Shown one piece after another: positions 7,652-44,633 of a DNA stretch of 64,000 bases (position 1 is its first letter; each line of letters starts with the position of its first letter). Source of the DNA: Anaerolineae bacterium (GTDB lineage Bacteria > Chloroflexota > Anaerolineae > Fen-1058); NCBI GenBank assembly GCA_035292585.1, contig DATDPU010000033.1:9691-73690 (forward strand), written 5' to 3'. The translations under genes and the position numbers were made by a program. The notes beneath the pieces are model-generated. The model worked only from the letters and a program-made list of their open reading frames with translations. It was not told where the DNA came from and searched no databases.

Positions 7652-7770
7652 GAATGTAGAATGTAGAATGTAGAATGTAGAATGTAGAATGTAGAATGTG
7701 GAATGTGGAATGTGGAATGTGGAAAAGCAGTCATTTCATCATTCGGCATTCTGCCTTCTACATTTCAGAG
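7652..7770. repeat. heptanucleotide tandem array (GAATGTA x6, GAATGTG x4) followed by a partial inverted copy
   Basis: Direct repeats seen in the sequence, in the ccmH-ccmG intergenic region. GCATTCTGCCTTCTACATTTC downstream is the inverted complement, giving hairpin potential. Confidence 0.8.
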
Positions 7771-8262
7771 TTGTTGTTTCAATTCGCGCTCGACCTGATC
7801 GACGTACTCGTCGCCGGTTGGGGCCGGGGCCACGGGTCGGGCCGGCGCTGCTGCGCCGCGCTGCGACATGCGCCGGATGATGCGGAACGCATAGAAGCCG
7901 CCGGCGAGGACGACCAGGATCGGGCCGATCCATACAATGGGGGCGACTTGGGCCGATGACTCGCTCAGCACGCGCTGCCCGTAACGCTGGACGAAGAGCT
8001 GCACGATCGCTTCGTCGCTCTTGCCTTCGGCCAGGTATTGCGCGATCTGCGCCTTCCATTGCACGCAGGCTGGTGTCTGGCAGACGTCGAGCGGCTCGTT
8101 CTCGCACACCGGGCAATACAACCTGGAGGCGACGCGATTCACGTCGTCGGGGGCGTTGGGTCGCGGCGGCGGCGTCCCGGCCTGAGCCGAGACCGAGGCC
8201 GCCACCACCAACCCAACCAACAAACTAACCACCACTCCAACCCGCAGACTGAGCTTTCTCAC
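7765..8262 (-). CDS. ccmH: cytochrome c-type biogenesis protein CcmH (NrfF-like)
   Basis: LYCPVCENEPLDVC motif with AEGKSDEAIVQLFVQRYGQRVL signature, a signal-like N-terminus and a C-terminal TM. The proposed GTG start at 8262 overlaps the ccmF stop (GTGA). Confidence 0.8.
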   Translation of the reverse strand: MRKLSLRVGVVVSLLVGLVVAASVSAQAGTPPPRPNAPDDVNRVASRLYCPVCENEPLDVCQTPACVQWKAQIAQYLAEGKSDEAIVQLFVQRYGQRVLSESSAQVAPIVWIGPILVVLAGGFYAFRIIRRMSQRGAAAPARPVAPAPTGDEYVDQVERELKQQL

Positions 8263-10322
8263 CGCCCCGCCTCGCTTACGACGACGCGCGTGCTCCGCGC
8301 CCGAACTGGAACGGTCGCGGCCATGCCGCTCGGCCACATGGCCAGCAGCGTGCCGATCACCAGCAGCACACTGCCGATCCACAGCCAGTTCACCAGCGGG
8401 TTGATGAATATCTTCAGCGTGCCGAAGCCGCCTTCTTCGCCCAAGAATAGGATATACAGATCTTCGGCCAGCGTCGAGCGGAGCGCGGGCGGGAGCAGGC
8501 CGCCGCCTTGCTGGAAGGTCTCGCGGTACGGCGTCATGGCTTCCGGCGGGCCGCCGGCCACCGACACCAGCACGTGACCGACGAAGACCGATTTGTCCGG
8601 CTCGGCTTCCGGAACGTAAAACTCCGAGCCTTGATAAGTGATGGTGTAATCGCCGAGCGTGATCGCTTCGCCGGCGCGCACCGCACGCTGCGTCTCTTGC
8701 TGGAACATCATCGTGCCGACCACGCCGATGCCCATCAGAATCACGCCCAGATGGACGACGTAGCCGCCATAGCGCCGGCGGTTGCGCGCGATCAGCCGGC
8801 TGAGCGCGGTGAAGGCCGACTCGCCGCCCAGCTTCATGCGCGCCCGGACGCCGCGCGTGAACTCTTCCAACGTGATCAGGCCCGCATAGGTAATGACGCC
8901 GAAGCCGAGCAAAGCGCCCAACGCGCGAAAGCCGGCTGCAAACAGCACACCCACCACCACCCCGGCAATCAAGCCCGAGCGCCAGGTCATACGCCCCAAC
9001 GCCTGCGGCGACGACTTGCGCCAGGCCAGCAGCGGCCCGATGCCCATCAGCAGCACGAGCGCCGTCACCTGCGGGCCGATCAACTGATTGAAGGTCGGTG
9101 GCCTGACCATGAGCTCTTCGCCGACGAGCAATTCCGAGAACATCGAATAGTACGTGCCGAGGAAGACGGTGAACGTCACGGTCAGGAACAGGAAGTTGTT
9201 CATCACAAAGGCGGATTCGCGCGACCAGGGCGATTCCAGCCGGTTATCGCTTTTTAGATAATTCCAACGCCAGACCACCAATGCCGCTGAGCCCACGAGG
9301 ATCAGCGCAACGAAGCCGAGGAAGGGTGCGCCTAACGACGAGCGGGCGAAGGAATGAACCGACGAGATCACACCGGTGCGCGTGACGAACGTGCCCAGCA
9401 CCATCAGCGAGAAGGTGAGGATGATCAAGATCATGTTCCAGACTTTGAACATCCCGCGCTTCTCTTGGATCATCACCGAGTGCAGGAAAGCCGTCGCGGT
9501 CAGCCAGGGCAACAGCGCGGAGTTCTCGACCGGGTCCCAACCCCAGTAGCCGCCCCAGCCCAGCACATCGTACGCCCAGCGCCCGCCCAGCAATAGGCCC
9601 AGCGACAGGAATAGCCATGCGACCAGCATCCAGCGGCGCGTGGCTTTGATCCAGGCCGCGTCGGAAGCGGTCGAGCCGCCGAACAACGCCGCCATCCCAA
9701 ACGCATACGGGATCGCCAGCCCGACGAAGCCCAGGTACAGCATCGGCGGGTGGATGATCATGCCGGGGTGGCGCAGCAGCGGGTTGAGGCCCTGCCCATC
9801 GGCCGGCGTGAACGCTTGCGCGCCGGCCGGCTGGAAGACGGCCGCGCCGATCTGCCCATCCAGCCCCAGCCACAGCCGCGCGAAAGGATTGGCGAAGAAC
9901 AAGGTCAGGAACACGAAGAACAACTGCGTACCGAGCGCGACGACGATCACCCACGGCTGCAACTCGCGGTTGCCGCGCCACTCTTTGACGAACAGGAAGA
10001 AGATGTAAATCGAGAGCAGCCAGCCGAAGAATAAAATCGATCCATTTTGCCCACCCCATAACGAGGTGAACTTGAGGATATCCGGCGTGGCCCGGCTGCT
10101 GACGCGATAAGTATATTCCAGGTTGAAGTTGTTGCCGAGATTGGAGCCGATGACGGCCAGGCAGGCGATCGTCAGCAGCGGCGCGACGACGAGTGCAGCG
10201 CGTCTGGCGCTGCTCACCCATTCGGGTCGCTTGTGCCGTGCGCCCTGGAGCGCCGCGCCTACCGCGTAGGCGGCCGCTGTGAAAGCGAGGACAAGCGTGA
10301 TCAGGCCAATGTCAACGATCAC
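8259..10322 (-). CDS. ccmF: cytochrome c-type biogenesis protein CcmF (heme lyase subunit)
   Basis: 687 aa, about 15 TM helices and the WWD motif WGGYWGWDPVENSALLPWL with conserved His residues. Confidence 0.9.
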   Translation of the reverse strand: MIVDIGLITLVLAFTAAAYAVGAALQGARHKRPEWVSSARRAALVVAPLLTIACLAVIGSNLGNNFNLEYTYRVSSRATPDILKFTSLWGGQNGSILFFGWLLSIYIFFLFVKEWRGNRELQPWVIVVALGTQLFFVFLTLFFANPFARLWLGLDGQIGAAVFQPAGAQAFTPADGQGLNPLLRHPGMIIHPPMLYLGFVGLAIPYAFGMAALFGGSTASDAAWIKATRRWMLVAWLFLSLGLLLGGRWAYDVLGWGGYWGWDPVENSALLPWLTATAFLHSVMIQEKRGMFKVWNMILIILTFSLMVLGTFVTRTGVISSVHSFARSSLGAPFLGFVALILVGSAALVVWRWNYLKSDNRLESPWSRESAFVMNNFLFLTVTFTVFLGTYYSMFSELLVGEELMVRPPTFNQLIGPQVTALVLLMGIGPLLAWRKSSPQALGRMTWRSGLIAGVVVGVLFAAGFRALGALLGFGVITYAGLITLEEFTRGVRARMKLGGESAFTALSRLIARNRRRYGGYVVHLGVILMGIGVVGTMMFQQETQRAVRAGEAITLGDYTITYQGSEFYVPEAEPDKSVFVGHVLVSVAGGPPEAMTPYRETFQQGGGLLPPALRSTLAEDLYILFLGEEGGFGTLKIFINPLVNWLWIGSVLLVIGTLLAMWPSGMAATVPVRARSTRVVVSEAGR

Positions 10323-10344
10323 GAGACACTCCTCCCAAGAAGTC

Positions 10345-10435
10345 AGGACTTACGCAGTTGGCGCGGCAGTTGCACTGCCGCCGCCTCATCTGCCGCAGTA
10401 CAACTGCGGCAGCAACATGCAGCTGCGTAAGTCCT
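10345..10435. repeat. 91-bp MITE-like element with 16-bp terminal inverted repeats AGGACTTACGCAGTTG (copy A)
   Basis: Seen in the sequence. It is near-identical to 19335-19425 and is the inverted counterpart of 17266-17352. It lies in the ccmF-ccmE intergenic region. Confidence 0.8.
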
Positions 10436-10507
10436 GGAAGTGATACGTGCTGCATGGCTTCACGCGCCTGCGCTCACCCCGCGCGGGCGCCTGCGTCACG
10501 TATCACG

Positions 10508-10930
10508 CTAATTTCCTAGCGACTGTTCGGGGAACTCTTCTTCGTAGCGGGTCGGGCACTTGAGCAGCAGCGAGTCGGCGTAAAATGTGCCGTCGGCGTT
10601 GAGACGGCCTTCCATGATTGCCTGAGCTTGATCTTGAAGCAGCTCGGGGCGCGGGCCTTCGTACTTGATGCGCAGCGGCTCCTGCGCGCCGATCTGGTCG
10701 ATGGTATCGACGACCGCAAATTCTAGTTGCAGGGCCTGCGCATCGTATTGAATCGTTTCGCCGATAATGGCGCCAGAGATGCGCACGCTCTGGTTTTGGA
10801 ACTCAGCTTCTTTCTGACGCAGCTGCTCGATCGATAAAAAGTACTGGGCGCCGCTGGCCAGCCCCTGCCCAATGATCACGGCCACAGCCATCAACAGCAA
10901 TGCTCCACCCAGCAAGACTTTCGGTTTCAT
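10508..10930 (-). CDS. ccmE: cytochrome c-type biogenesis protein CcmE, Cys-variant (CxxxY) heme chaperone
   Basis: N-terminal TM anchor, OB-fold CcmE pattern and C-terminal LLLKCPTRYEEEFPEQ, where Cys replaces the canonical heme-binding His of HxxxY. The start is chosen at MKPKVLL (10930). Confidence 0.8.
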   Translation of the reverse strand: MKPKVLLGGALLLMAVAVIIGQGLASGAQYFLSIEQLRQKEAEFQNQSVRISGAIIGETIQYDAQALQLEFAVVDTIDQIGAQEPLRIKYEGPRPELLQDQAQAIMEGRLNADGTFYADSLLLKCPTRYEEEFPEQSLGN

Positions 10931-11181
10931 AGCCCTCCTCATTTGCCCCGGCGCAGTTGTGGCAGACCTCAGGCCACAGGACATTTATACCTCGCGTACC
11001 TGGAAAGTGTCAATATAGGGTATCACCTATTTTAGCTGACTTTTGTCCGGTAGCTAACGGGAATCCAGGCGGGATCGATGCCGGAAAGCGGCTGAACCCG
11101 GCCAATACCGCCCGTTCGGCGCGCCTGCCGTGGTTAAAACAATGCCGTGGTGGCAGGCCGCCTGATTCTGGGAATTAGGTT

Positions 11182-11538
11182 CTATTCGTACTTCAGCGCT
11201 TGCATCGGGTTCAACGTCGCCGCGCGCAGCGCCGGACAGCCCCGACAGGACGCCGATGAACGCGGCGCCTGACCGGCCAGGAAGGCCAGCGCGATGACGT
11301 TGATGAGCTGGCCGGCCACCCAGTCCAACACCACGCCGCCGATCCCGCCGACCGACCCGATGCCGGCCGCCTCGCCCAGGAACACCGACAACACGTCACG
11401 GTTGGTCGCGCCGAGCGCCTTCGTCACCCCGATCTCGCGCGTGCGCTCCAGCACCGCTATCGCCATCGTGTTGGCGATGCCGATCGCCGCGACGAGCAGC
11501 GCGATCGCGCCCATCCCGCCGAAGATGACCTGCAACAC
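11182..11538 (-). pseudogene. C-terminal fragment of an FtsX-family (MacB/LolE-like) ABC permease
   Basis: Only the last about 115 aa of an FtsX domain are present (IANTMAIAVLERTREIGVTKALGA...). There is no upstream N-terminal or TM1 region, and the fragment begins exactly at the 33-bp palindromic element. Confidence 0.5.
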
Positions 11539-11540
11539 TC

Positions 11541-11573
11541 AGAAACCTGGTTTCTTAAAGAAACCAGGTTTCT
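11541..11573. repeat. 33-bp double-palindrome element AGAAACCTGGTTTCT-TAA-AGAAACCAGGTTTCT (copy 2)
   Basis: Seen in the sequence. It is translated in several spurious ORFs as KPGFFKKPGF. Confidence 0.8.
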
Positions 11574-11993
11574 CCGTGTTACCTTTCGGCCCGAACGGCT
11601 CGCCGGGATCGGGGCTGAGCACGGGCGTCGGGCGCACGCTATCGAGTCCGATCAGTCCGAGGAAGGCGCGCGCCAGCATATCGAAAAACGATTCCTCCGT
11701 CTGCGGCGGGCTGCCCTCACCGCCGGGTTGGTTCGGATCGATCGGCGGCTCGGGCTGCGGCAGCACTTCGATCTCGAGCGTGTCGCTGATCAGCTTCGAC
11801 TCGTTGAAGTCGTCCACGTAGTTGACGAGAATCGTCAACGTGAGCGGGCCGGGTTCGAGCGGCGGGGCTGGACTCAATGTGGTTTCAACAAGCGGTATCG
11901 GATGTCACTCAGGCTCAAACGAAAACGATCATAAGCGGAGAGAGGTTCCCCGTCAACTTGTGACGGACGGGTGGGGTTGCCCGGATGCATCCA

Positions 11994-12024
11994 GAAACCA
12001 GGTTTCTTGACGAAATGGTTTCTC
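11994..12024. repeat. degenerate copy of the 33-bp double-palindrome element (copy 3)
   Basis: AGAAACCAGGTTTCT-TGA-CGAAATGGTTTCT, lying just 3' of the L,D-transpeptidase gene. Confidence 0.6.
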
Positions 12025-12027
12025 AAG

Positions 12028-13065
12028 CTAGGTGACGACGATAGGCGTGCCGCCCTCATCGACCAGCACGACCGGCTCGGCATAATCGGTTGCCGGGTGC
12101 GACCAGCGAAAGAACCACAGCGCATCCGCCGGGGTCACGTTGACGCAACCGTGCGAGCGGGGGTGGCCGAAGTCGTTGTGCCAGTACGCGCCGTGAATCG
12201 CCGCGCCGGCCGTTGTGAAGTAGGTGCAAAAGGGCACGCCGGGCAGGTCGTAAAAATCCGAGCGTCCTTCGCCGCCCCGCATGTGGCGCGAGGGTCGCTT
12301 GCGCACCACGCGATGCCGGCCCGCGGGTGTGGTGTAGTTGAGCGTCCCCAGACCTTCGATGGTAAAGTAGGTGCCGGTGGCGCAGATCGTCGAATGCACC
12401 GCGACGCCAGCCTCGTAAGCCGTCACCCGCTGCTGCTGGATGTCTACTTCGACCATTTTGTCTTCCACGTCGGGCGAAAGCGGCGACATCTCGCTCGGCG
12501 GGATCGGGCGAACGTGATCGGCGCGCGCGTAGTGAATCAGCCCCGAAATGAAGTCATCCCTGATCCGATACCACCACACGCCCCGTGGGTCGCGCTGGGC
12601 GTCGATGATGAGGTGAACCGAAGCGTAATACAGGCGATAGGTGCGCCGCGCATCGGAATTGGGACGGGCACGCGCCTCGGTGAAGGGCACGCTGATCTGT
12701 CCCCAGAAGCCCTGCGGCGGCACAGCGCGCACGACCCAGCGCTGCCGTTCGTCGCGCACGGGTTGAACGTACGACGAGTACACCCAGCCGGTGCGGATGC
12801 GAAACCAGCGCGAGTTGTGCTTCGCCAGCCCGACCGTATCGGCTTCCTCGAAGATCGGCACGATCATATCGCGCTGCAAAGCGCCGCTGACCTCGCTCTC
12901 CGGATCGGGCGCGGCATAAATCCTCACCCGGGGCTGCGTGACGCGACCCAGTGTATCGGGCAGCGGCAGCCAGTCGCCCTGAGCGGCGATGGGCGATCCC
13001 AGCCAGGGCGCGATCAGACCGGTCCCGGCCAGCTGGAGGAAGGTGCGTCGGTCGAGCGACTGCAT
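12028..13065 (-). CDS. L,D-transpeptidase (YkuD family) with Tat signal
   Basis: RRTFLQLAG twin-arginine motif and the C-terminal catalytic HGCVNV (His/Cys) motif of the YkuD domain. Confidence 0.8.
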   Translation of the reverse strand: MQSLDRRTFLQLAGTGLIAPWLGSPIAAQGDWLPLPDTLGRVTQPRVRIYAAPDPESEVSGALQRDMIVPIFEEADTVGLAKHNSRWFRIRTGWVYSSYVQPVRDERQRWVVRAVPPQGFWGQISVPFTEARARPNSDARRTYRLYYASVHLIIDAQRDPRGVWWYRIRDDFISGLIHYARADHVRPIPPSEMSPLSPDVEDKMVEVDIQQQRVTAYEAGVAVHSTICATGTYFTIEGLGTLNYTTPAGRHRVVRKRPSRHMRGGEGRSDFYDLPGVPFCTYFTTAGAAIHGAYWHNDFGHPRSHGCVNVTPADALWFFRWSHPATDYAEPVVLVDEGGTPIVVT

Positions 13066-13084
13066 CGGAGTGAGTCCTGGTAAT

Positions 13085-13215
13085 TTTTAGAAGTTCAGGC
13101 AGCGGTTGTACGGCTGTCCATGCGCCGCCGCTGCACTGCGGCGCGAACCGACTGAAGTTCAGGCAGCAGTTGCACTGCTGCCCGGCTCCGCAGTGCAACT
13201 ACAGCGCGAACTTAC
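13085..13215. repeat. GC-rich hairpin repeat with direct duplication (GAAGTTCAGGCAGC...) and GCAGTTGCACTGC core
   Basis: Two about 45-bp direct repeats, each containing the GCAG(T/C)TG(C/T)ACTGC hairpin core shared with elements at 10345, 17266, 27718, 42496, 46335 and 49990. Confidence 0.6.
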
Positions 13216-13388
13216 TGGGGTGGTCCTTGACTGCGGTGTTGGGTCGAGTATAGCGAATTCGGCTGGTGATGCAAGTGGCGAGAAGCTAAGCGCTTTCCGC
13301 CGAATACGCAACATCGATCGGATGATGTTGGAGACGGCAAAGCGTGACTCCGATCCTATTGCGGCACTGAGGCTACGCCGTTGTCGCC

Positions 13389-13403
13389 AGACCTCCGAGG
13401 TCT
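13389..13403 (-). terminator. candidate stem-loop terminator AGACCTCCGAGGTCT downstream of the GNAT gene
   Basis: Near-perfect palindrome immediately 3' of the stop codon at 13403-13405. There is no U-tract, which is common in high-GC genomes. Confidence 0.3.
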
Positions 13404-13945
13404 CAAGCGCGATCTGGCGCAGCGTCTAGATTGATTTTGATCTCCCACACCCCAGCTTCCAGCTTTTTCTGGGCGGTCAGGCCGCTGCGCTGGATGAAGC
13501 GCATGATCTCGGCGTTGCTATAATGAACGGTGGCGAGGAAGGCGTGCACACCTTGCCCTCTGGCATACCCGACGAGCCGATCCACTAAGATTGTCCCCAG
13601 GCCGCGCTCCTGATAGTCGTCTTGGACGACAATCGCTGCCTCGGCCGTATCGAGCTGCGCCGAGTCAATTGCGGCGTAGCGCGCCACGCCGATGAGCTGC
13701 TCTGGCTCTTCGGCCAGCGCTGCGACGATCGCCATGCGCGTCCGATAGTCCACGTTCGCCAGCTGCTGCGCGTCGCGATCGGGCAGCGCCGTACGCTGGT
13801 CGAGAAAACGCAGGAAGATGCTCTCGGTGGACAGCCGCGCATGCAGCGCTTGCAGCCGAGGCGCATCATCAGGCTGGATCGCGCGGAGGCGCACCGCTGT
13901 GCCATCACGCAGCGTCACCGTTTCGGGCGGATAGGCGTTGGACAT
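13403..13945 (-). CDS. GNAT family N-acetyltransferase
   Basis: 180 aa with an acetyl-CoA binding motif region (QERGLGTILV...) typical of GNAT. Confidence 0.75.
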   Translation of the reverse strand: MSNAYPPETVTLRDGTAVRLRAIQPDDAPRLQALHARLSTESIFLRFLDQRTALPDRDAQQLANVDYRTRMAIVAALAEEPEQLIGVARYAAIDSAQLDTAEAAIVVQDDYQERGLGTILVDRLVGYARGQGVHAFLATVHYSNAEIMRFIQRSGLTAQKKLEAGVWEIKINLDAAPDRA

Positions 13946-14210
13946 GGTCTGCTCCTCACCTGCAGATAGGCAGATTATACGCCGGTACGCGGTAAACGCG
14001 CGTAGGAAACAGCGTGTGCACGGAAAACCTGTCAGACGGCAAGACCTGCGAGGTTTTGTTTAGAGCGCGTTACGGCGAAAGTGCCCGCATAAACCTCGCA
14101 GGTCTAATGAGCTGACAACGTTTGCGTGCGCAGGAAATAGCTGCGCGCTTGCCCGTCGATATGTTGTGCGCTACAATCGGCTCGCGCCACTGACGGCACA
14201 AGGAGCCAGC

Positions 14211-14768
14211 ATGAGCAATCGTCTAGCGAGAATGGTATTGAGCCTGGTCGTGGGATCGATCGGAGTAGCGATCGGCCTGTACTTTGGCCGCTTCATCGCT
14301 GGCGGCGTTGGCTTGCTGTTTGCCTCGTCACGGCAGGCGATCCCTATCGCCACCAGCACGGCGTGGTGGGCTTTCATCGGCCTGATCGGCGGGCTGGCGC
14401 TGGCTTTTAGCGCCGTGCGCAAGCATCGTGTTTTATTAGTGCTGGCCTCGATTGTGGGTTTTGCGTTGGGCGGCGCGATCGCGGCTTTGCCGGAGGCGAG
14501 CCGCATCGATCGCAGCGCGCTGTTGGCAACGCTGGCCGTGTGGCTCGGTGGTGCGCTGGCGGGATTATTGTTGGGTCTAGGGGCGCGGCTTGGTGTTCGC
14601 GCACTCGTGCTGGCCGCTGCCGGGGCGCTGGCGATGTTTTTGGCGCGATCACATCTGGAGGCGTTGATCCCGCCATCCGACGTGTTCGCGTTGCTCGCGC
14701 CGGGCGCGCTGCTCGGCGTAGTGCTGGCTGCGCTTGCGCCCGAGAGGGCAGCGGCGCCGCCCGCGTAA
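14211..14768 (+). CDS. hypothetical integral membrane protein
   Basis: Five to six hydrophobic Gly/Ala-rich helices with no recognisable motif. The start is chosen at MSNRLARM. Confidence 0.45.
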   Translation: MSNRLARMVLSLVVGSIGVAIGLYFGRFIAGGVGLLFASSRQAIPIATSTAWWAFIGLIGGLALAFSAVRKHRVLLVLASIVGFALGGAIAALPEASRIDRSALLATLAVWLGGALAGLLLGLGARLGVRALVLAAAGALAMFLARSHLEALIPPSDVFALLAPGALLGVVLAALAPERAAAPPA

Positions 14769-15345
14769 CCACGCGCAGGCTGCGAGCGCGCAAGCGCTGG
14801 GGTTACCGGGTATCACCCGTGGTTGGGTACAACGGGGGATACTGCTCTAAGAGCGTCTTGAACAGGAAGTGAGGCGTGCTGCTCATCCGCGCTTGCTGTG
14901 CTCGGCGCAGATGTTCCTCTGCTCTGGCGAGCGCCTCTTCAGCCGACGTGAGTATCGTATCGAGCCGTGTGCCTACGGTCGTGGGTGATTGATCCGGCGT
15001 GGCTGGCAGGAAGATCATTTCAGACATCGTGCGCCCCTTTAAGCTCGATGACCTATGCACTATAACCCCGGTTCCTGCACGTGATTCAGGCTGGCTGTCT
15101 AAGCACGGTATGAGTTTCGTGCCGCTATGGTATGGATTGAAATCGGTTGAGAGGCTTTCATCTTTTGCACACTGGCTACGGACGCGGTGTGCGCTTATCG
15201 ATCGGGCAGCGCCTCAAGGGCTAAGTTCGCCGGTTAAGAATCGTAGGAAAGGCTCTATACCCGATCGAACCGAAATGACGCTGATCCCAACGCCGATTCG
15301 CGCGCGGCAGTTTGGGGAAAGTTATCGATTAGAATTTCCGAGAGG

Positions 15346-16263: not shown

Positions 16264-16285
16264 GCAAGCCTCGCGCGAAGCGCGA

Positions 16286-16312
16286 CCCCCGCCCGAAGGA
16301 GGGGCGGGGCAG
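16286..16312 (+). terminator. candidate GC-rich stem-loop after the deacetylase gene (CCCCGCCC-gaaggag-GGGCGGGG)
   Basis: 8-bp perfect stem seen 25 nt after the stop. No U-tract. Confidence 0.3.
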
Positions 16313-16463
16313 GTGGTAGGCGAATAAACGAATGCAAGAGTCGCATCGCGGCGACGATGACAAACGCATGTAGGAGTTGCCTCCCGGCGACGACGAACAA
16401 ACGGATGCAGAGGTCGCCGGGAGGCAACGCTGGATAGCTCATCGCACGACAGGAGGTCTTAAC

Positions 16464-17240: not shown

Positions 17241-17265
17241 ATGGATAGCTGCTTCTCTATAGACC

Positions 17266-21788: not shown

Positions 21789-21795
21789 AGGCCAT

Positions 21796-35452: not shown

Positions 35453-35574
35453 CCGGCTTACCTCGATTCTCCAGACCTGCCGGGTCTTGGAGACGAGGCA
35501 GGTCTGCACGGATTATACACCCGATGTCCGGCCCGTTCTTGTCAGCGATGGGGTGACGTGCTACACTCGCGTCG

Positions 35575-37292: not shown

Positions 37293-37343
37293 AAACGGCG
37301 GCCCGGCGCGAGGTGCGATAGGCGCGATGCCAGCGGCGCGCCG

Positions 37344-38396
37344 CTAAAGCAGCAGCAGCAGAATCGGCGCGCCGACCACCGCCAGCATGAAGATGGTCAG
37401 GTTACGGCGGTTGTGCGTCACCCGACCGACGAGGTTCAACACCAACCGTTCGTAGCCGCGATACGAAATGGACAAGATCGCCAGCGAGACCAGCGCCACG
37501 CTCAACATCTCGACCAGCACGATCGTGAAAGCGGCCGGGTTGTTCATCAACACCGACGCCACCAGCGTATCGACAAACGTGGTGACGTTGGCGCCCATGA
37601 TGTAGGGCACCACGTTCTCGACGCGGATATAGCCGCGCGCGGAGAGCGGCACCAGCAACCCCAGCGATACCGAGACGGACATCGAAATACTGGTGACGGC
37701 CATGCCTAAGCCGAACATCACGATCGGCCGGTACAGCAGGCGCGGCGTTTCGCCGAAGCCGGTGCCGCTGAGATCGAGGTCGGGCAAGGCGCGATCGAAC
37801 ACGTTGAAGGCGACCATCACCACGCCGACGCCGACGCCGAAGATCAACAGGCCCGGCGCCCACGACGTGATCCAGCCCACGATCGGATCGAAAACGGCAT
37901 CCATCACCGACGCCAACTGGCTGGTGGCCGTGAAGTGTAACGTGCTCAACCAACCGTTCGACAGAATGAGATAACCCAACAGCATCGCCGGCAGGTACGT
38001 CGTCCAGGTCGTGAGCAGCGAGACCAACCCCATGCCCAGGCTCCGCTTGGACTCCTGGCCCCGCAGCAAGTAGACGAAGCCGATGAACAGCACGATGAAC
38101 GACGCGCCCATACGCGAGCCGTTGATCATCATGAAAGCTTCCACGGTATCGACCGCGCCGCCGTTGAACAGACCCAGGGTGGCGGCGGCGACGGGCGATC
38201 CGCTCAACACAAAATACGCGCCGAGCCAGCCGAAGCCCAGAGCATTAAACGGGTTGCTGATCAGCGAGGTCTCGCGCAGCAGCGGCGCGAGCGTTTTTGC
38301 GCCGGCCTTCATCAACTGGATGGCCAGGATGAAAAAAAACAGGCCCGCCGCGCCATAGGCAATCTTCTGCACGTGAATTCGCGGCAGTCGGCGCAT
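37344..38396 (-). CDS. Na+/phosphate cotransporter family protein (NptA-like, no PhoU domain)
   Basis: Polytopic membrane protein with duplicated Na/Pi cotransporter motifs (SGSPVAAATLGL...; GANVTTFVDTL). The start is chosen at MRRLPRIHV. Confidence 0.65.
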   Translation of the reverse strand: MRRLPRIHVQKIAYGAAGLFFFILAIQLMKAGAKTLAPLLRETSLISNPFNALGFGWLGAYFVLSGSPVAAATLGLFNGGAVDTVEAFMMINGSRMGASFIVLFIGFVYLLRGQESKRSLGMGLVSLLTTWTTYLPAMLLGYLILSNGWLSTLHFTATSQLASVMDAVFDPIVGWITSWAPGLLIFGVGVGVVMVAFNVFDRALPDLDLSGTGFGETPRLLYRPIVMFGLGMAVTSISMSVSVSLGLLVPLSARGYIRVENVVPYIMGANVTTFVDTLVASVLMNNPAAFTIVLVEMLSVALVSLAILSISYRGYERLVLNLVGRVTHNRRNLTIFMLAVVGAPILLLLL

Positions 38397-38400
38397 CGGC

Positions 38401-39027
38401 TCAGGCCTCGCCCCGCGCTTCGCGCGCCAGCCGCGCGTAAAAGGCGGCCAGCACGGCGTGGCGCTCCTCGGCAATGGCGCGTCCGGTGCGTGTGGTCATG
38501 CGCTCGCGCAAGCGCGACAGTTTCACCACGTACTCGTGATGCGGGGTGTGCTCGCCCGGCCGGGCCTGGCCGTGTGCGAACCGCTCCGGGTAGTCGGCGG
38601 CGACCTCGTCCCACAGCCGCTGGCCGATCACGCCAGTGTAGGCGAACGCGCGCGCCGCGCCGATCGCGCCGATCGCATCGAGCTTGTCGGCGTCGAACAG
38701 GCAGCGCGCTTCGAGCGTGTCGGGCGGCGGGCCGGAGCGAAAGCGATGTTGGAGGATGGCGCGCACGACCGCCTCCACTTTTTCGGGTGGCTGGGCTTGC
38801 AAAATTTCGCGGGCGCGCCCCGCCGCCACTTCGGCGTGATCGCGCCCCGAGCGATCCCCGCGTCCCACGTCGTGCAGCAGCGCCGCCGCGCGCACGATCG
38901 CGACGTCGGCCCCTTCGGCGCGCGCCAGCCGCTCGGCCAGCGCCGTCACGCGCAGCACGTGATCAAAATCGTGGGCGGGATCGTGCAAATCGGCATAGTA
39001 GCGACGCGCTTCAGCGGGCTCGATCAC
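38401..39027 (-). CDS. HD-domain phosphohydrolase
   Basis: HD motif FDHVLRV...LLHDVGR. The start is uncertain: GTG at 39027 overlaps the upstream stop by 17 nt, or ATG at 39081. Confidence 0.6.
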   Translation of the reverse strand: MIEPAEARRYYADLHDPAHDFDHVLRVTALAERLARAEGADVAIVRAAALLHDVGRGDRSGRDHAEVAAGRAREILQAQPPEKVEAVVRAILQHRFRSGPPPDTLEARCLFDADKLDAIGAIGAARAFAYTGVIGQRLWDEVAADYPERFAHGQARPGEHTPHHEYVVKLSRLRERMTTRTGRAIAEERHAVLAAFYARLAREARGEA

Positions 39028-40159
39028 GCACGCGCTCCTCGGCAACCTGATAAATGATGCGGGCTGCCCGGAACGCCGCATTCGGTCGAGCGATGGCGCG
39101 CGCGTTCACCGACAACTCTTCCAGGCGTCCGGGGTTGTTCAACCAGGCGCGCAGCGTGGTGACGACTTGGGCGGGGCGCGGGCAATACGCCCCGGCGCCG
39201 GCCTGGATCACGAATTGCGGGTTGCCTTCTTCCTGCCCGGGGACGAAGTCGAAGAGGATGAGCGGCAGGCCGCGCACCAGGGCTTCGGCAATCGTATTCG
39301 AACCGGCTTTGCCGATCAGGACCGTGGCCGCGGCCATCCAATCGGACATGTTGCGCGTGAAGCCCAGCACGCGCGTGGGCATCGGCCAATCGGCGGCTTC
39401 CAACTCTTCGCGCAGCATCTGGTTGCGCCCGGTGATGATCACCAACTGCGCGTCCAGCCCGCTCTCGCCGAGCGTGTGGGCGATATCGTAGACCCGACCC
39501 ATGCCCTCGCCCCCGCCGCTCAACAAGATGATCGGCTTGCGTGGATCGAAGCCTAAGCGCCGGCGCAACAGATCGGGCGGCTCGATCGGATCGAGAAAGC
39601 GGGGATGCACCGGCAGGCCGGTGACGGCAACGCGATCGGCGGGCGCACCCCGGCGGATCGCCCGCTCGCGCGCCACCTCGGTCGGCACGAGATAGCGCTC
39701 TGCGCCGGGCGCGCACCACAGCGCATGATTCGTGACAATGTCGGTGAAGACGAAGAGGCAAGGGATGCGCAGCCAGGTGAGCGGGTAACTGTAGGTGGGG
39801 TGGAAGGAGACGAACAGATCGGCCGGACGATCGGCCAGCAGCTCGCGCATCGCGCGGCGCATGGGCCACCACATGATGCTGGCGCCCAGGCGAATGCGGG
39901 CGTGCGTATCGAGCGCATGGAAGAACGCGCCGAGCAGGGGCCGGGCAAAGCGCGCCGTCTGCGTGTAGGTCTGCCGGCCCCGGTTGTAGGGGAACGGCGC
40001 GTAGTCGGCCAGCGCGTCGACGAGCTCAACCTGCGCGCAATCGCCGGCGGTTCGGCGCAGGGCTTCGCGCACGGCTTCGGCCGGGGCGCGATGCCCGCCG
40101 CCGACGTCGGCGAACAGGAAGACGAGTCGAGCCGGGCGTTGAGGGGTTAGGGTCGACAC
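39011..40159 (-). CDS. GT28-family glycosyltransferase (MurG-like; MGDG/diglucosyl-DAG synthase-like)
   Basis: N-terminal GGGH motif (ADVGGGHRAPAEA), a C-terminal GT-B fold with GAG...E pattern, and about 380 aa length typical of bacterial MGDG synthase/UgtP. Confidence 0.7.
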   Translation of the reverse strand: MSTLTPQRPARLVFLFADVGGGHRAPAEAVREALRRTAGDCAQVELVDALADYAPFPYNRGRQTYTQTARFARPLLGAFFHALDTHARIRLGASIMWWPMRRAMRELLADRPADLFVSFHPTYSYPLTWLRIPCLFVFTDIVTNHALWCAPGAERYLVPTEVARERAIRRGAPADRVAVTGLPVHPRFLDPIEPPDLLRRRLGFDPRKPIILLSGGGEGMGRVYDIAHTLGESGLDAQLVIITGRNQMLREELEAADWPMPTRVLGFTRNMSDWMAAATVLIGKAGSNTIAEALVRGLPLILFDFVPGQEEGNPQFVIQAGAGAYCPRPAQVVTTLRAWLNNPGRLEELSVNARAIARPNAAFRAARIIYQVAEERVRDRAR

Positions 40160-40162
40160 AGG

Positions 40163-40390
40163 TCAGGTTGACCGATTGGCAAGCGCTGAGCGATCCGTTG
40201 TCGCTGCGCGCCGGACGAAAGTCTTGAGGCGTTTCGCGAACTCCCCACGCGGAAGCAGCACCCGCCGGCCGCAGGTGGCGCACTTGAGGCCAATGTCTGC
40301 GCCCACGCGCACCACCGTCCATTCGTAGCCGCCGCACGGATGGGGTTTGCGCAGGCGGACGACATCATCGATTTCTACCTGAACCGGCAT
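40163..40390 (-). CDS. DUF951 family small protein
   Basis: 75 aa with the conserved [23 protein letters not shown] pattern. Confidence 0.7.
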
Positions 40391-40477
40391 GGGGTATCCT
40401 ATAGCGATGCCCGGTCTTTGTAAGCACCCGAAGCGGGGGGCAGGGGCGCCGACCTGGCACGCCTGGATTATAAACTG

Positions 40478-42427
40478 TTATGGGCTGACGGACAACACTC
40501 GCTGTGGGCCTTCGCCGTTCTCGCGCGTTGCCAGCCGGTAGGAGACGGTCGTCACCGTCGCCCGATCGAGGTCTTGCAGCGCCAGGTTGAGCGCGATCGC
40601 CGCGTTCTGGTGCAGCGCTTGCTCCAACAGGTTGTCCATCACCAGATGGCCGACGATGACGTGGATGAAGCCCTGCGGTATTTCTTTGAGCAGGTCTTCG
40701 ATATAGCGGTGCACCGGATCGGCCAGGTTGCGATAGGGCGAGGGTAGGAGGGTCAGGTAGGCCTCGTCGCCGATACGCTCCTGCCACTTCTGCTTCACGC
40801 GCTCCGCCTTGTCCGGGTCGATGGCGACGTGTACGGCGGTCCAGGGGACGCCCAGCGATTTGGCGAAGTTGATGGTGTGAATCGTTCCGGCGTGGACATC
40901 GTCGACCAGCACCAGCGTCTTGACCGGGCGCGGGCGGATGTTGGGCCAGCGCGTGCCCTGACCCAAAATGCGCGCCACATCTTTGTAATGGCTGTGAATG
41001 CGGAAGAAGATGAACACCAGCGTCGGGATCAGGATGACGACGATCCACGCTCCCTCGCGGAATTTGGCGACCGCGAAAATCAGCATCACGATGCCCGTCA
41101 TCGTCGCGCCGAAGCCGCTGATAAACATCTTCAGACGCCAGCGCGGATCATGCTGCACCGGGAAGCCGTGCAGCTCGGCGTGCTCGCCGGGCCGCAGGCG
41201 GCCGATCGCGCGCCAGCGCCGCACCATGCCCGACTGCGACAGCGTGAACGAGAGGAACACGCCGACAGCGTACAGCGGGATCAAGCGCGTCGTCTCGGCG
41301 TCAAACATGATCACCAGCAGCGAGGCCATCGCGGCCAGCACTACAATTCCCCAGTGGAACACCAGCCGCCGCCCGCGATAGGTCAGCTGCCGGGGCAGGA
41401 AGCCATCCTGCGCCATGAAGTTCGCCACGCGCGGGAAGTCGGCGAACGAGGTATTGGCCGCCATCAACAGGATGATCGCCGTCGCCATTAGCAACAGCAC
41501 GTACAGCGCCCCTTCGCCGAAAATGGTGCGGCCGATCTGCGACATGACCGTCTCCGTCATACCCTCGAAGGCATACGCATCGACCTGGTGCGCCAGCAGC
41601 GTGATGCCCAGGAAGGTCGTGGTGAGGATGGCGACCAGCACGGTCAGCGTCAGCGCCGCATTGCGACTGCGCGGCTCTTTGAACGCCGGCACGCCATCGG
41701 AGATGGCCTCGATGCCGGTCAAGGCGGTGCAGCCGCTGGCAAAGGCGCGCAGCACCAGCAGCACGGTCAGCGGCTGCGCCTGGTGTTCGATGAATTCTCG
41801 CGGTGTGACCGCGCCCAGCGTACCCGTGAGTAACTGAATCAGGCCGGCGCCAAGCGTCAGCGCCATCAGGGTGATGAAGAAGTAGGTGGGGATGGCGAAC
41901 GCCCGCCCCGATTCCTTCACGCCGCGCAGGTTGATCAGCGTGATGGCCCAAATCACCGCCAACGCGATCTGCACTTTGTACGGATGTAACTCCTGAGCGA
42001 ACGAGGCGATCTGTTCCACACCGTTGGAAATGCTCACGGCCACCGTCAGGATGTAATCGGTCAGCAGCGCCGCGCCGGCGACTTGCGCAACGTTGAGGCC
42101 CAGGTTATGACGTGACACGATGTACGCGCCGCCGCCGGTCGGATACGCGTAGATCGTCTGCCGGTATGAAATGGTGACGATGATCAACAGGCCGGCGATC
42201 ACCAGTGCGATAGGGATCGACAGGCCGAAGACGGCGGCGCCCGCCAGCGCCAGCACGATCAGGATTTCCTGCGTGGCGTAGGCCACCGACGACAGCGCAT
42301 CCGACGCGAATACGGCCAGCGCGACCCTTTTGCTGATCGCCTGGTGCGGCGCGTCGGCGGTGCTCAGCGGCGGGCCAAATAAAATACGCGCCAACGAGCG
42401 GCGCGGCGCCGTTACAGTTGTTGCCAT
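40478..42427 (-). CDS. APC-superfamily amino acid permease with about 200-aa C-terminal cytoplasmic domain
   Basis: 12-TM APC pattern (start MATTVTAPRR), followed by a soluble C-terminal region of unknown function. Confidence 0.7.
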   Translation of the reverse strand: MATTVTAPRRSLARILFGPPLSTADAPHQAISKRVALAVFASDALSSVAYATQEILIVLALAGAAVFGLSIPIALVIAGLLIIVTISYRQTIYAYPTGGGAYIVSRHNLGLNVAQVAGAALLTDYILTVAVSISNGVEQIASFAQELHPYKVQIALAVIWAITLINLRGVKESGRAFAIPTYFFITLMALTLGAGLIQLLTGTLGAVTPREFIEHQAQPLTVLLVLRAFASGCTALTGIEAISDGVPAFKEPRSRNAALTLTVLVAILTTTFLGITLLAHQVDAYAFEGMTETVMSQIGRTIFGEGALYVLLLMATAIILLMAANTSFADFPRVANFMAQDGFLPRQLTYRGRRLVFHWGIVVLAAMASLLVIMFDAETTRLIPLYAVGVFLSFTLSQSGMVRRWRAIGRLRPGEHAELHGFPVQHDPRWRLKMFISGFGATMTGIVMLIFAVAKFREGAWIVVILIPTLVFIFFRIHSHYKDVARILGQGTRWPNIRPRPVKTLVLVDDVHAGTIHTINFAKSLGVPWTAVHVAIDPDKAERVKQKWQERIGDEAYLTLLPSPYRNLADPVHRYIEDLLKEIPQGFIHVIVGHLVMDNLLEQALHQNAAIALNLALQDLDRATVTTVSYRLATRENGEGPQRVLSVSP

Positions 42428-42495
42428 GTGTAGCTCCATCAGCCGGCCGGCAAGCGCGTGGAACCCGGCCGGTCTATCTTCTACCTCTACCCTAC

Positions 42496-42648
42496 TACTA
42501 CCCCGACCGCCTCATTCTGCGGGGTTGGGACGGCAGTTGCACTGCCGTCCGCCGCAGTTCTGGCCGCCGCCCGCCCTCCTAAACTGCAAATGAGGGCGGC
42601 GGTCATGCGGCGGGAACTATGCAATTTCAAGTTGTCGAAGTACTACAC
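42496..42648. repeat. GC-rich hairpin element family E, short copy
   Basis: Shares both ends with 17413-17637 and contains GGACGGCAGTTGCACTGCCGTCC plus a GCCGCCCGCCCTCC...GAGGGCGGCGG hairpin. It sits between the permease start and the TrkA stop. Confidence 0.75.
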
Positions 42649-43308
42649 TCGTCCCAGCAGCTTGGCCAGCGCTTCGCGCTGCGCCGTCCGCACGACGGCC
42701 AGCACTTCGTCAAACGCGTGCAGCACCGTATCGCCGCGCGGGGTGATCACGTCGCCTTTGCGGATCACTGCCGCGATGGTGCAGTCGGGCGGCCAGGGCA
42801 CATCCTTGATGGCCTGGCCGTTGGCGACGGCGGTCTCGGCGATCTTCTCCTCCACGATTTCCACTTCGCCTTTGCGCAGCGTGAGCAGCGTCAGCATATC
42901 GCCCAGCGACATCTCTTCCGCAATCATCTTGGCTATCAGGTCGGCCTGGTTCAGCGCCACGTCCACCCCCATTTCCGACGTGAACAGCCAGGCGTTGCGC
43001 GGGTTGTTGACGCGCGCGATGATGCGCGGCACGTTGAATTCAAATCGCGCCAAACTGGTGACGACGAGGTTGGTCTCATCGCTGCCGGTGACCGCGGCGA
43101 CCACGTTCGCCTTGCGGATCCCCGATTGTTCAAGCCGGGTCGGGTCGGTCCCATCGCCGGGATTGATGATCTCGGCCGGCAGCTCCTGATGCAGCTTAAC
43201 CAGCACATCGGGCCGCGGATCGATGATGCGAATCGTATGTCCTTCGTCCAGGAGGATCGAACCCAGGTGTGAACCGACCTTACCGCCGCCAATGATCAAG
43301 ACAAACAT
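42643..43308 (-). CDS. TrkA-family K+ transport regulatory protein (NAD-binding + TrkA_C)
   Basis: IIGGGKVG Rossmann motif at the N-terminus and a C-terminal RCK_C pattern. Confidence 0.85.
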   Translation of the reverse strand: MFVLIIGGGKVGSHLGSILLDEGHTIRIIDPRPDVLVKLHQELPAEIINPGDGTDPTRLEQSGIRKANVVAAVTGSDETNLVVTSLARFEFNVPRIIARVNNPRNAWLFTSEMGVDVALNQADLIAKMIAEEMSLGDMLTLLTLRKGEVEIVEEKIAETAVANGQAIKDVPWPPDCTIAAVIRKGDVITPRGDTVLHAFDEVLAVVRTAQREALAKLLGRV

Positions 43309-43327
43309 GTTCCCTCCGCGCGATGCG

Positions 43328-43975
43328 TCACTGCGTCCGCACCTGTGCTTCCAGCTCCGCCAGCAACTCGGAAGGCAGGCTCAAATACGCCAGGTCGGCC
43401 GTCTGAAACGTTTCGCCGGCCCTGGGCACGAAGGCGCGGCCGGCGCGCGTCACCGCCACGACCAGCGCCCGGCTGTTCAACACACCCGCCAGCGGACGGC
43501 CCACCCAGGCGGCGGGAACCTTCACTTCCAGCAGCTTCACTTCGCCGTGACCGATCAGCTCCATCTCGATCAGGCCGGGGTGCAGCAGGAGATGCTGGAT
43601 GCGCTGCGCTCCCCAGGACGAGGAGGCAACCGTCTGCAAGCCCATGCGCTCATAGACTTCGTAGCGCGCCGGGTTGTAGATGCGCGCCACGACATTGGGC
43701 ACTTTGTAGATGTCCCGCGCGATCTTGGCGGCAATGATGTTGGCGTTATCGCTGGCGGTGGTTGTGGCAAACGCCTGCGCCGCTTCGATGCCGGCGCGTT
43801 GCAGCACGCTGCGGTCGAAACCGAAGCCCTGCACGGTGCGGCCTTTGAAGTCCGGCCCGAGCCGCTCGAAGGCGCCAGGGTTCATATCGACGATGGTCAC
43901 AGCGTGACCTTGCTGCGAGATGGATACGGCCAGTTCGGCGCCGACCCGCCCGCAACCCACAATGAGCACGTTCAT
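43328..43975 (-). CDS. TrkA-family K+ transport regulatory protein (second paralogue)
   Basis: IVGCGRVG Rossmann motif, same architecture, and only 19 nt from the first trkA. Confidence 0.85.
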   Translation of the reverse strand: MNVLIVGCGRVGAELAVSISQQGHAVTIVDMNPGAFERLGPDFKGRTVQGFGFDRSVLQRAGIEAAQAFATTTASDNANIIAAKIARDIYKVPNVVARIYNPARYEVYERMGLQTVASSSWGAQRIQHLLLHPGLIEMELIGHGEVKLLEVKVPAAWVGRPLAGVLNSRALVVAVTRAGRAFVPRAGETFQTADLAYLSLPSELLAELEAQVRTQ

Positions 43976-44108
43976 TCAGCTTCCTCCACTGCCGGACAAA
44001 TCAAAAGCCCACCCCGACGACGGGCGGGCCTTATGCGCGTGTACGCTCGCCTACGTAATTTGCATCCCGATTATAGCGAGGACTGGATCGCCTGTCAAAA
44101 TCGATCGG

Positions 44109-44516
44109 CTAACGCGTGAGAATGCGACGGACCTGTTCGGCCGAGCGATTGAGCGCCAACATCACCAGACCCAGTTTCGCCTCGTGGCTGACCATCACGG
44201 CCAGCGCGGCATCGGCGCCGGCCGGCACGACCACGATCCCGCCTTCACTGCCATCGATCAGCACGCGACTGATCGTGCCGCGCGCGAGTTGCGCCAGTAC
44301 GCGATCGCTCAACGCGATGATCGACGCCGCCATCGCGGCCACCTGCGGGCTATCGGCCGGGTTCTCGGCGCGCTTGCGGCGGCCGTTTCCGTGCGGCAAA
44401 TGCGCGGCCACTACGAACCCGTCCAGACTGACCACGACGGTCCCTTGCAGACCATCCACCGCCTCGTGCAGGCTGCGCAGGATATCCTCGATCTGATTGA
44501 CGCGATATTCGGGCAT
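44109..44516 (-). CDS. roadblock/LC7 (MglB-like) domain protein
   Basis: About 135 aa with the roadblock pattern (VVVSLDGFVVAA...AAMAASIIALS...LIDGSEGGIVVV). The start is chosen at MPEYRV. Confidence 0.65.
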   Translation of the reverse strand: MPEYRVNQIEDILRSLHEAVDGLQGTVVVSLDGFVVAAHLPHGNGRRKRAENPADSPQVAAMAASIIALSDRVLAQLARGTISRVLIDGSEGGIVVVPAGADAALAVMVSHEAKLGLVMLALNRSAEQVRRILTR

Positions 44517-44565
44517 AAACTCAACCTGGCCTCCAGGCCACGAAACCACGCAGAGTATACCACGC

Positions 44566-44629
44566 AACCAACCAACCAACTAGCCAACTAACCAACGAAC
44601 ACTTGTTGGTTGGATAGTTGGATCGTTGG

Positions 44630-44633
<4 letters not shown>
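44566..44633. repeat. hairpin-forming heptamer array (CAACCAA units facing TTGGTTG units)
   Basis: Inverted repeat seen between the hutU stop and the roadblock start. It shares TTGGATAGTTGG with 30637-30648. Confidence 0.75.

Follow-up and report, generated by a model that had tools for sequence, protein, structure and literature searches.

Tandem arrays of 7-8-nt units occupy short gaps between genes in a 64,000-nt stretch of DNA from an uncultured, Thermoflexales-like bacterium of the Anaerolineae (Chloroflexota; GenBank assembly GCA_035292585.1, contig DATDPU010000033.1, positions 9,691 to 73,690; the whole stretch is hereafter called the window). We found that one inverted pair of these arrays encloses a gene of the 23S_rRNA_IVP family (PF05635; IVP for short), and that IVP genes as a rule have inverted arrays of a 7-nt unit on either side. 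Drawing on the analogy with the intervening sequences (IVSs) of rRNA genes, we favour, with somewhat better than even confidence, the reading that the window arrays are the arms of IVS-like foldback cassettes, composed of 7-8-nt tandem units and located in operon spacers, which would be probable substrates of RNase III. No function has been established for the S23p/IVP proteins of PF05635 since their discovery in rRNA intervening sequences (PMC4990558). The same is true of heptanucleotide repeats in bacteria, e.g. the short tandemly repeated repetitive (STRR) sequences of cyanobacteria and the TAACTGA repeats of Beggiatoa. The window and our survey of IVP loci connect the two, in Chloroflexota operon spacers, cyanobacterial plasmids and many metagenomic lineages, and the link between the IVP family and its repeat unit makes the function of this family testable.

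Using Tandem Repeats Finder (TRF), we recovered 7-8-nt arrays, with copy numbers of 3-10, at every site where a first-pass annotation of the window had placed heptanucleotide arrays (Table 1). The window contains four strongly periodic 28-nt stretches at period 7 and three at period 8, far above the means of 0.02 and 0.06, respectively, obtained from 200 locally shuffled windows. Similarly, GAATGNNGAATG occurs 18 times where 0.16 occurrences are expected, CCAAC-N2-3-CCAAC 8 times (0.16 expected) and GGTAG-N2-3-GGTAG 6 times (0.03 expected). Contigs from ENA, JGI and Logan match the window at 100% identity over 21.3, 13.8 and 6.9 kb and cover six of the arrays; since the array sequence is the same in three independent assemblies, the arrays are not the assembly artefact that the annotation had allowed for. 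They are real and non-random, they are not peculiar to one contig, and their GC content is 33-49%, compared with 62% for the window.

The annotation had described the units as 7 bp long and specific to each locus, and both descriptions needed adjustment. Period 7 was found at several arrays, but period 8 occurs as well; the units vary between sites, but three families each recur at two or three loci. GAATG-type units are found at 7652-7770 and in both arms around the IVP gene, CCAAC/GTTGG units at 30250, 30630-30650 and 44568-44629, and GGTAG/CTACC units at 21830 and 30238-30342. The GAGTTAG type is a further family, giving at least four in the window. Although unit families recur, no two arrays within the 64 kb are copies of each other.

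As the annotation had noted, the arrays lie in short intergenic gaps and extend some of the predicted open reading frames (ORFs). They almost completely fill these gaps, which separate co-directional genes, starting at the upstream stop codon or only a few bases from it. The distance from the end of the array to the next start codon is 1 nt for TctA, 1 nt for YdjM, 0 nt for GIY-YIG, 10 nt for the ResA-like gene and 17 nt for GT4. "ComEC-like" is our own label for the OB-fold/DUF4131 membrane gene upstream of TctA, and the gene map is rough between 33 and 64 kb, where it was based on GC content at third codon positions.

The arrays at 23183-23249 and 23634-23685, between TctA and YdjM, had been listed as separate hairpin sites of GAATGAG units with an inverted copy. 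The inverted relationship is correct, but the key context, a PF05635 gene flanked by the pair, had been missed: the arrays are 385 nt apart, enclose an ORF of 129 aa, and constitute the two arms of one stem rather than two hairpins. The encoded protein matches PF05635 in Pfam (E = 1.2e-20, 74.1 bits for a cut-off of 33.8) and TIGR02436 in NCBIfam (E = 4.7e-27, 94.3 bits for a cut-off of 24). Compared by sequence, it also matches PDB entry 2rld (E = 2.4e-19), which has five chains; the S23p protein of Xanthomonas was reported to be a pentamer (PMC4990558). An AGGGGG run resembling a Shine-Dalgarno motif follows the 5' arm, and the gene may start at the GTG at 23259, past this run, instead of at 23241.

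The duplex predicted for the two arms has an energy of −55.9 kcal/mol (z = −5.07). The minimum free energy structure of 23170-23700 closes a stem of ~55 bp that begins at the TctA stop codon and leaves 1 nt between its end and the YdjM start. The pair therefore has the terminal inverted repeats, forming a long enclosing stem, that characterize an IVS. An Rfam gathering search detected no rRNA in the window, and the flanks of the arrays consist of protein genes.

The same arrangement was found well beyond the window. We collected 80 metagenomic loci whose IVPs share 37-56% identity with the window protein. Flanks were usable at 77 of them, and these 130-nt flanks were compared with 1022 control windows from the same contigs. 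The best period was 7 in 64 of the 77 upstream flanks and 58 of the 77 downstream flanks, against 105 of the 1022 controls. Strong arrays were present in 39% of upstream and 39% of downstream flanks, with 53% of the loci having one on at least one side, but in only 1.8% of controls. Upstream and downstream flanks form a duplex with z < −3 in 39 of 77 loci; of the 27 loci with clear arrays on both sides, 20 have a downstream unit that matches the reverse complement of the upstream one with at most one mismatch. The units are diverse, with 33 distinct sequences among 41 arrays, and the upstream arm is purine-rich (0.64 vs. 0.39). At 22 of the 30 loci where orientation could be resolved, the IVP gene runs in the same direction as both neighbours, and no rRNA was found in the 20 loci checked with Rfam, where only a tRNA was detected. 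Array-IVP-array architecture is also present in an unclassified metagenome-assembled genome (L076) with a TctA 46% identical to that of the window, and on plasmids of three cyanobacteria and of Chlorohelix allophototropha (Table 1).

The unit also appears to follow the protein. Three IVPs that are 59-68% identical to that of the window, at unrelated junctions, keep AATGA-core units like the GAATGAR unit of the window. Among apparently non-syntenic IVP pairs with more than 55% identity, 35% have units within one mismatch of each other, compared with 3-6% below this threshold.

Two observations accompany the survey. The cassettes on plasmids of cultured bacteria sit within defence or mobile loci: between cas2 and cas1, between DISARM drmD and an MmeI-type enzyme, beside a Swt1-family HEPN gene, and beside TnsA and XisH/XisI. 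In addition, most contigs that bear homologues of IVP or of the small GIY-YIG protein have a length of only 0.5-3 kb, as would be expected if short-read assemblies often break at these genes and their repeat flanks.

The closest relatives of the window TctA protein are 87%, 78% and 77% identical to it. In related genomes, an orthologous junction may lack any insertion, contain a hairpin or contain a cassette with an ORF. The TctA/YdjM junction has no insertion in L009 and L012 (2-26 nt), and in L009 the stop and start codons overlap as ATGA. In L030 it carries an ORF-less hairpin of GCAATGAA/TTCATTGC (z = −6.5). Array-IVP-array cassettes are found in the window, L004 and L019, the IVP orthologues being 78% (L004) and 73% (L019) identical to that of the window; the 5' and 3' arms contain 9.4 and 7.3 copies in the window, compared with 4.4 and 3.7 or 4.3 and 4.4 in the relatives. 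L005 instead has a GxxExxY (TIGR04256) ORF within a different inverted repeat. L004 and L005 are closely related here (TctA 96% identical, flanking DNA 92-95%), and their alignment breaks at both gene ends, so that arms and ORF differ as a whole cassette. At the ComEC-like/TctA junction, nearly every relative has an array or hairpin of varied units, and L019 has a GxxExxY cassette; L004 and L005 (~94% identical) have the CGATACG unit in common at this junction, with array lengths that differ by ~65 nt. That an entire cassette is exchanged between genomes so nearly identical suggests that arms and ORF evolve as a single unit, as does the fact that the unit tracks the IVP lineage while the arms stay complementary around ever-different units.

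The GxxExxY ORFs (L005:10171-10729 and L019:6600-7075; TIGR04256, PD-(D/E)XK-like), each within its own inverted repeats, represent a second type of cassette with a small ORF; in the window, the corresponding junctions are occupied by heptamer hairpins or by the IVP cassette. The behaviour of GxxExxY cassettes is based on two cases; tblastn of the fetched loci revealed no further GIY-YIG or GxxExxY copies. TGAA/ATGAA borders the IVP cassette on both sides (23182-23190 and 23680-23692 in the window, with equivalents in L004 and L019), and the empty junction L009:11300-11315 has one overlapping ATGAA only, with the stop TGA inside ATGA. These borders could be a target-site duplication, or the GAATGAA unit could derive from the stop/start junction; ATGAA/TGAA also belongs to the repeat unit, from which a target duplication is inseparable. 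Elsewhere in the same ~94% identical pair of genomes, an indel of ~1 kb separates L005:5520-6500 from L004:7333-7560; judging from ORF translations alone, the extra L005 DNA may contain a pair of nucleotidyltransferase/HEPN-like genes, reduced to remnants in L004.

The annotation had proposed a slipped-strand or phase-variable element and had suggested that length variation among strains would support slippage. We found no array indel among the three assemblies of the strain, nor in strain pairs that are 99.5-100% identical and were compared over 1.1-6.3 kb spanning arrays. Given that copy numbers differ at orthologous junctions (IVP arms, the CCAACYA array described below, and the ~65-nt difference noted above) with no strain-level indel, array length changes between species; the slippage proposal stands in this restricted sense. 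It is extremely unlikely that the arrays are phase-variable contingency loci, where units would be gained or lost frequently and thereby switch neighbouring genes on and off. Short tandem units do lie beside start codons, and the IVSs of Coxiella strains vary by a single heptamer (PMC4990558), but the three assemblies agree at 100% identity over as much as 21 kb, the strain pairs are gap-free, and the arrays are located outside coding frames and promoters and do not have promoter-spacer geometry.

The variation in copy number at orthologous junctions would also agree with ordinary simple repeats, made by slippage in unconstrained spacers and without function, for which the hairpins and the IVP association would be by-products; the lack of any RNA-strand signal in the stem mismatches (see below) points in the same direction. 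Slippage, however, yields direct repeats and not matched inverted arms, whereas the downstream unit at IVP loci is mostly the reverse complement of the upstream one even though units differ by locus. The large excess of strong arrays in IVP flanks over controls, the swapping of whole cassettes at gene boundaries and the recurrence of unit families across loci speak against it as well, and we regard this explanation as doubtful.

Outside the IVP cassette, five arrays form self-contained hairpins (7652-7770, 21796-21863, 27921-27986, 30236-30350 and 44566-44633) whose predicted RNA folds are far more stable than those of dinucleotide shuffles (z of −4.8 to −6.1 on the best strand). The annotation had predicted one architecture, a long imperfect hairpin, for all arrays, possibly a structural motif; this is supported at the five sites and for the pair enclosing the IVP gene, but the array at 30618-30655 is direct and wholly unstructured, with a sense-strand folding energy of 0 kcal/mol. 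It pairs weakly with 30282-30350, and not to a significant degree (z = −1.7). The array at 402-469, outside the range covered by the annotation, gave marginal values, and the region at 2060-2135 was dropped as an array candidate, its structure not being significant in the fold test.

Table 1 Positions and properties of arrays, cassettes and other repeats. Positions are those of the window unless a plasmid is named; folding energies are in kcal/mol.
Feature	Position (strand)	Units	Details
Junctions with arrays	7652-23685		ccmH/resA-like; ComEC-like/TctA; TctA/YdjM
Junctions with arrays	27921-44633		ABC-2 permease 3' end; GIY-YIG/GT4; HD/GIY-YIG; hutU/Roadblock
TRF array	7652-7724	period 7, 10.4 copies	98% matches
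TRF array	23183-23248	period 7, 9.4 copies
TRF array	23633-23683	period 7, 7.3 copies
TRF arrays	21828-21865, 30238-30272, 30312-30344, 30626-30654, 44565-44629	periods 7-8
TRF array	27921-27984	irregular, period 6-8
Cassette 5' arm	23183-23249 (+)	(GAATGNN) × 9.4	begins within TctA stop (TGA 23182-23184)
IVP gene (23S_rRNA_IVP, PF05635 / TIGR02436)	23241-23630 (+)		four-helix-bundle protein, 129 aa
Cassette 3' arm	23634-23685 (+)	(NNCATTC) × 7.3	stops 1 nt before YdjM start (23687)
ORF-less foldback array	7652-7770	(GAATGTR) × 10.4 at 7652-7724, short loop, ~5 degenerate inverted NCATTCN units	fold −42.8, z −5.15 (+); z −3.5 (−)
Neighbours of 7652-7770 (Pfam)	7765-8382 (−); 7075-7641 (−)		ccmH; ResA/TlpA-like thioredoxin gene
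ORF-less hairpin	21796-21863 (+)	CTACCTG-type, then CAGGTAG(A)-type	fold −32.5, z −6.06; occupies the 76-nt gap from the OB-fold/DUF4131 membrane gene stop (21788) to the TctA start (21865)
ORF-less hairpin	27921-27986 (−)	GAGTTAG / CTAACTC, period 6-8	fold −34.9, z −5.43 on sense (−) strand; begins at ABC-2 permease stop codon (27983-27985)
Foldback array	30236-30359 (−)	in sense order (AACGTAA) × 2, (CAGGTAG)-type arm, loop, (CTACCAA/CCAACYA)-type arm	between GIY-YIG gene and GT4 start (30218), sense array stopping 17 nt short of the GT4 ATG; fold −51.7, z −4.79 (+); z −1.42 (−)
Direct CA-rich array	30618-30655 (−)	sense CCTAACCAACTATCCAACTAACCAACC	fills HD/GIY-YIG gap up to the GIY-YIG ATG
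ORF-less hairpin	44566-44633 (−)	CCAACNN / NNGTTGG	fold −37.4, z −5.73 on sense (−) strand; begins at urocanate hydratase (hutU) stop (44630-44632), ~50 nt upstream of Roadblock/LC7 start (44516; Pfam)
Weak array candidate	402-469	(GAAGGCT) × 3.6, then (TTCGTCC) × 2.9; period-7 region	69-nt gap between two minus-strand ORFs; z −2.3 (+), −1.0 (−)
REP-like palindromes	10344-10436, 19334-19426, 17265-17355 (inverted)		93-nt composite repeat, twice at 98.9% identity
Shorter REP-like copies	near 13100-13200, 27735-27760, 42530-42560, 46335-46360, 50040-50070
IVP cassette (L179)	Nostoc punctiforme pNPUN01	inverted arrays GTCGGAG / CGACYTC
IVP cassette (L180)	Planktothrix agardhii p1	nested GATTTAC / CGTAAAT and CCCCAAT arrays
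IVP cassette (L178)	Anabaena cylindrica pANACY.01	inverted arrays	between cas2 and cas1
IVP cassette (L181)	Chlorohelix allophototropha plasmid	inverted arrays

The position of some hairpins could suggest that they are intrinsic terminators or attenuators separating transcription units. Three of them begin at a stop codon (27921, 44566 and the 7770 side), and the sole sigma-70-like promoter match in 21000-31500, at 27913-27885 (−), falls between the 27921-27986 hairpin, which it closely follows when read in the sense direction, and the aldehyde:ferredoxin oxidoreductase gene downstream. However, none of the 13 terminator-like sites in 21000-31500 is an array, no array has a T run after it, and the stems, several of which stop directly at the next start codon, are imperfect and rich in AT. 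We therefore consider this role very unlikely. No array matched an Rfam family.

The GIY-YIG gene, which lies between two arrays, was examined as a possible hairpin passenger. This idea was rejected because the gene is conserved in synteny and the flanking arrays pair weakly: it is a member of a conserved M50-HD-GIY-GT4-ABC2 gene order found in many Anaerolineae, with 64-89% identity, and arrays are often absent around it.

The direct arrays bring a different explanation into play, in which arrays in leaders or spacers are bound by a single-strand RNA-binding factor with a footprint of ~7 nt (S1, a cold-shock-domain protein, or another) that tunes translation of the downstream gene, the hairpin being a masked state. 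Five arrays end 0-17 nt before start codons that have no Shine-Dalgarno motif, and the array at 30618-30655 is free of structure. The CCAACYA array before GT4 is kept in three species (~80% protein identity), with ~5 units in the window, 14 in L164 and 3 in L168. The heptamers of Beggiatoaceae also lie mostly a few nt from start codons, and binding by S1, Csp or Csr proteins was proposed for them (PMC4679880). A role of this kind possibly applies to the direct CA-rich arrays, but as an explanation of the arrays in general it is unlikely in our view, given the high diversity of the units, both at IVP loci and among the families of the window. Furthermore, three hairpins, including those at 27921 and 44566, begin at a stop codon with no start codon directly after, and in relatives with no array (L164, L166, L172 and L174) the same genes are also devoid of a Shine-Dalgarno motif, indicating that the array is not needed as a substitute for it. 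The inverted arm and the link to IVP would be left unexplained.

The reading that we favour, that of foldback cassettes, would account for these features as follows. Each cassette would be a run of units with the reverse-complement units behind it, either immediately or with a short ORF in between. It would be co-transcribed with its host operon, and the transcript would fold into imperfect double-stranded RNA consisting of 5-bp helices interrupted by 2-nt mismatches, which RNase III may cut as it does the stems of rRNA IVSs. The insertion could be tolerated because the base of the stem would hold the stop and start codons adjacent; a self-contained stem would be the least disruptive insert between a coupled stop and start. 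The number of units would shift by replication slippage, with a repeat-built stem tolerating any register. At least the GAATG/AATGA hairpins are probably ORF-less relatives of the IVP cassettes, and we read the array at 30618 and part of the GT4 leader as single-arm (direct) versions.

Several points weigh against this reading. Processing by RNase III is an argument by analogy. Mismatches in the IVP stems show no sense-strand excess of G.U over A.C (53 vs. 45, p = 0.48), so that the pairing could take place at the DNA level or be a by-product of how the arms arose, and for two of the five ORF-less hairpins the better fold is on the strand antisense to the neighbouring genes. The CCAACYA array is direct-only and unstructured in L164 and L168, as is the array at 30618-30655 in the window, and with such arrays the tandem array, and not the foldback, may be the primary feature. 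These three findings speak against a role confined to RNA. The gene that lies between two arrays near GT4 is a conserved syntenic gene and no cassette passenger. No mobility enzyme was found associated with the arrays or cassettes. Overall, unit similarity did not correlate significantly with IVP identity in a Mantel-type permutation (p ~ 0.10); the correlation is clear only where identity exceeds 55%. Finally, the connection between the hairpins and the IVP cassettes consists of a shared architecture, GAATG/AATGA units at two loci, and one series of junctions.

A more speculative proposal, which we think improbable, gives the protein a direct part. IVP, which we take to be a four-helix-bundle pentamer related to the Avd protein of diversity-generating retroelements (DGRs), might form a ring that binds its own tandem heptamers, one unit per subunit, in the manner of TRAP on GAG repeats. 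The IVP lineage and its flanking unit would then have co-evolved, and ORF-less arrays with the same unit, e.g. GAATGTR at 7652-7770, compared with GAATGNN around the IVP gene, would be targets in trans. If this were true, arrays and IVP genes would make up a widespread, undescribed system of post-transcriptional or DNA-level control, or of mobility, and the cyanobacterial STRR repeats would be explained as well.

The window contains further repeats. A family of GC-rich palindromes resembling repetitive extragenic palindromic (REP) sequences, with the core GCAGTTGCACTGC, occupies longer intergenic gaps and is distinct from the AT-richer heptamer arrays (Table 1). A second dispersed repeat, tactagtaccccgaccgcctcattctgcggggttcggacggca, adjoins these palindromes at ~17400-17440, 27745-27790 (reverse) and 42490-42530, and together they look like a composite element of the miniature inverted-repeat transposable element (MITE) type. 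The 3' end of the GT4 gene has 11 in-frame copies of a GC-rich 15-mer (sense GGTCGGCATCTGGAG; 28824-28988), which add ~55 residues, (GRHLE)n, that are missing from orthologues of 418-429 aa; similar CATCTCC(C/A)GATGCCGAC 18-mers are found at 5587-5639 and 6379-6414. The part from 57000 to 64000 may be of different origin: its GC content is 0.52-0.57, down from ~0.63, and it contains 1.9 copies of a 45-nt unit at 63629-63715.

In the literature that we searched, we found no description of IVP genes generally flanked by inverted heptamer arrays, no report of such arrays at Chloroflexota operon junctions, and no earlier description of heptamers as the general building block of both arms; the coverage of the search was incomplete, and an earlier report is possible. 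Several known systems nevertheless resemble the window arrays in part. REP sequences and bacterial interspersed mosaic elements are likewise intergenic, hairpin-forming and found within operons, but each REP is a single GC-rich palindrome, and one consensus holds throughout the genome. The foldback (FB) elements of Drosophila have long inverted termini of short tandem repeats. Foldback transposons and MITEs share with the window the inverted termini of short tandem units and the occurrence of ORF-less beside ORF-bearing copies; the window elements differ in having no transposase and no near-identical dispersed copies within the 64 kb.

Cyanobacterial STRR sequences were reportedly described by Mazel et al. 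in 1990 as a few genome-wide units in heterocystous cyanobacteria. They and the P6b stem-loop of Nostoc have tandem 7-nt units in non-coding DNA, as does the window, and the P6b stem is built from complementary repeats; moreover, the plasmid IVP genes of Nostoc, Planktothrix and Anabaena have inverted arrays like those of the window. In contrast to the STRR sequences, the window arrays have a Chloroflexota host, their units each occur at 1-3 loci in 64 kb, and they form paired inverted arrays around a gene. P6b belongs to the Nostoc tRNA-Leu(UAA) intron, where the stem-loop of two complementary 7-nt repeat motifs (TDNGATT or NNTGAGT) varies in length and undergoes block replacement between lineages (PMC4476775); unlike the window arrays, it sits inside a group I intron. 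In marine Beggiatoaceae, TAACTGA forms intergenic direct repeats of 2-6 or more copies, mostly a few nt before a start codon, and the repeats also occur in Cyanobacteria and Bacteroidetes (PMC4679880). The likeness to the window lies in intergenic heptamer arrays that end a few nt before the start codon. Beggiatoaceae, however, have a single conserved unit that is almost always direct (one inverted in 170) with no reported link to IVP, whereas TAACTGA is in none of the window arrays, most of which are inverted pairs.

IVP genes have been noticed in several other settings: between cas genes (PMC3936711) and, together with GIY-YIG ORFs, in non-intron insertions of rRNA genes of the Candidate Phyla Radiation (CPR; PMC11270868). 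The 23S rRNA IVS of Coxiella burnetii has an S23p (PF05635) ORF in a 28-bp terminal stem that is cut by RNase III, and GACAGAT heptamers, in strain-dependent number, at its 5' end (PMC4990558). The 23S rRNA IVSs of Coxiella, Leptospira and Brucella thus resemble the window cassette in placing a PF05635 gene in the loop of a long stem of terminal inverted repeats, and the window elements more generally in their tandem heptamers in the 5' arm, short ORF-less versions and lack of a transposase (PMC4990558). RNase III cleavage has been shown for the rRNA IVSs only, and the elements of the window are found not in rRNA but in the spacers of protein operons, between stop and start codons.

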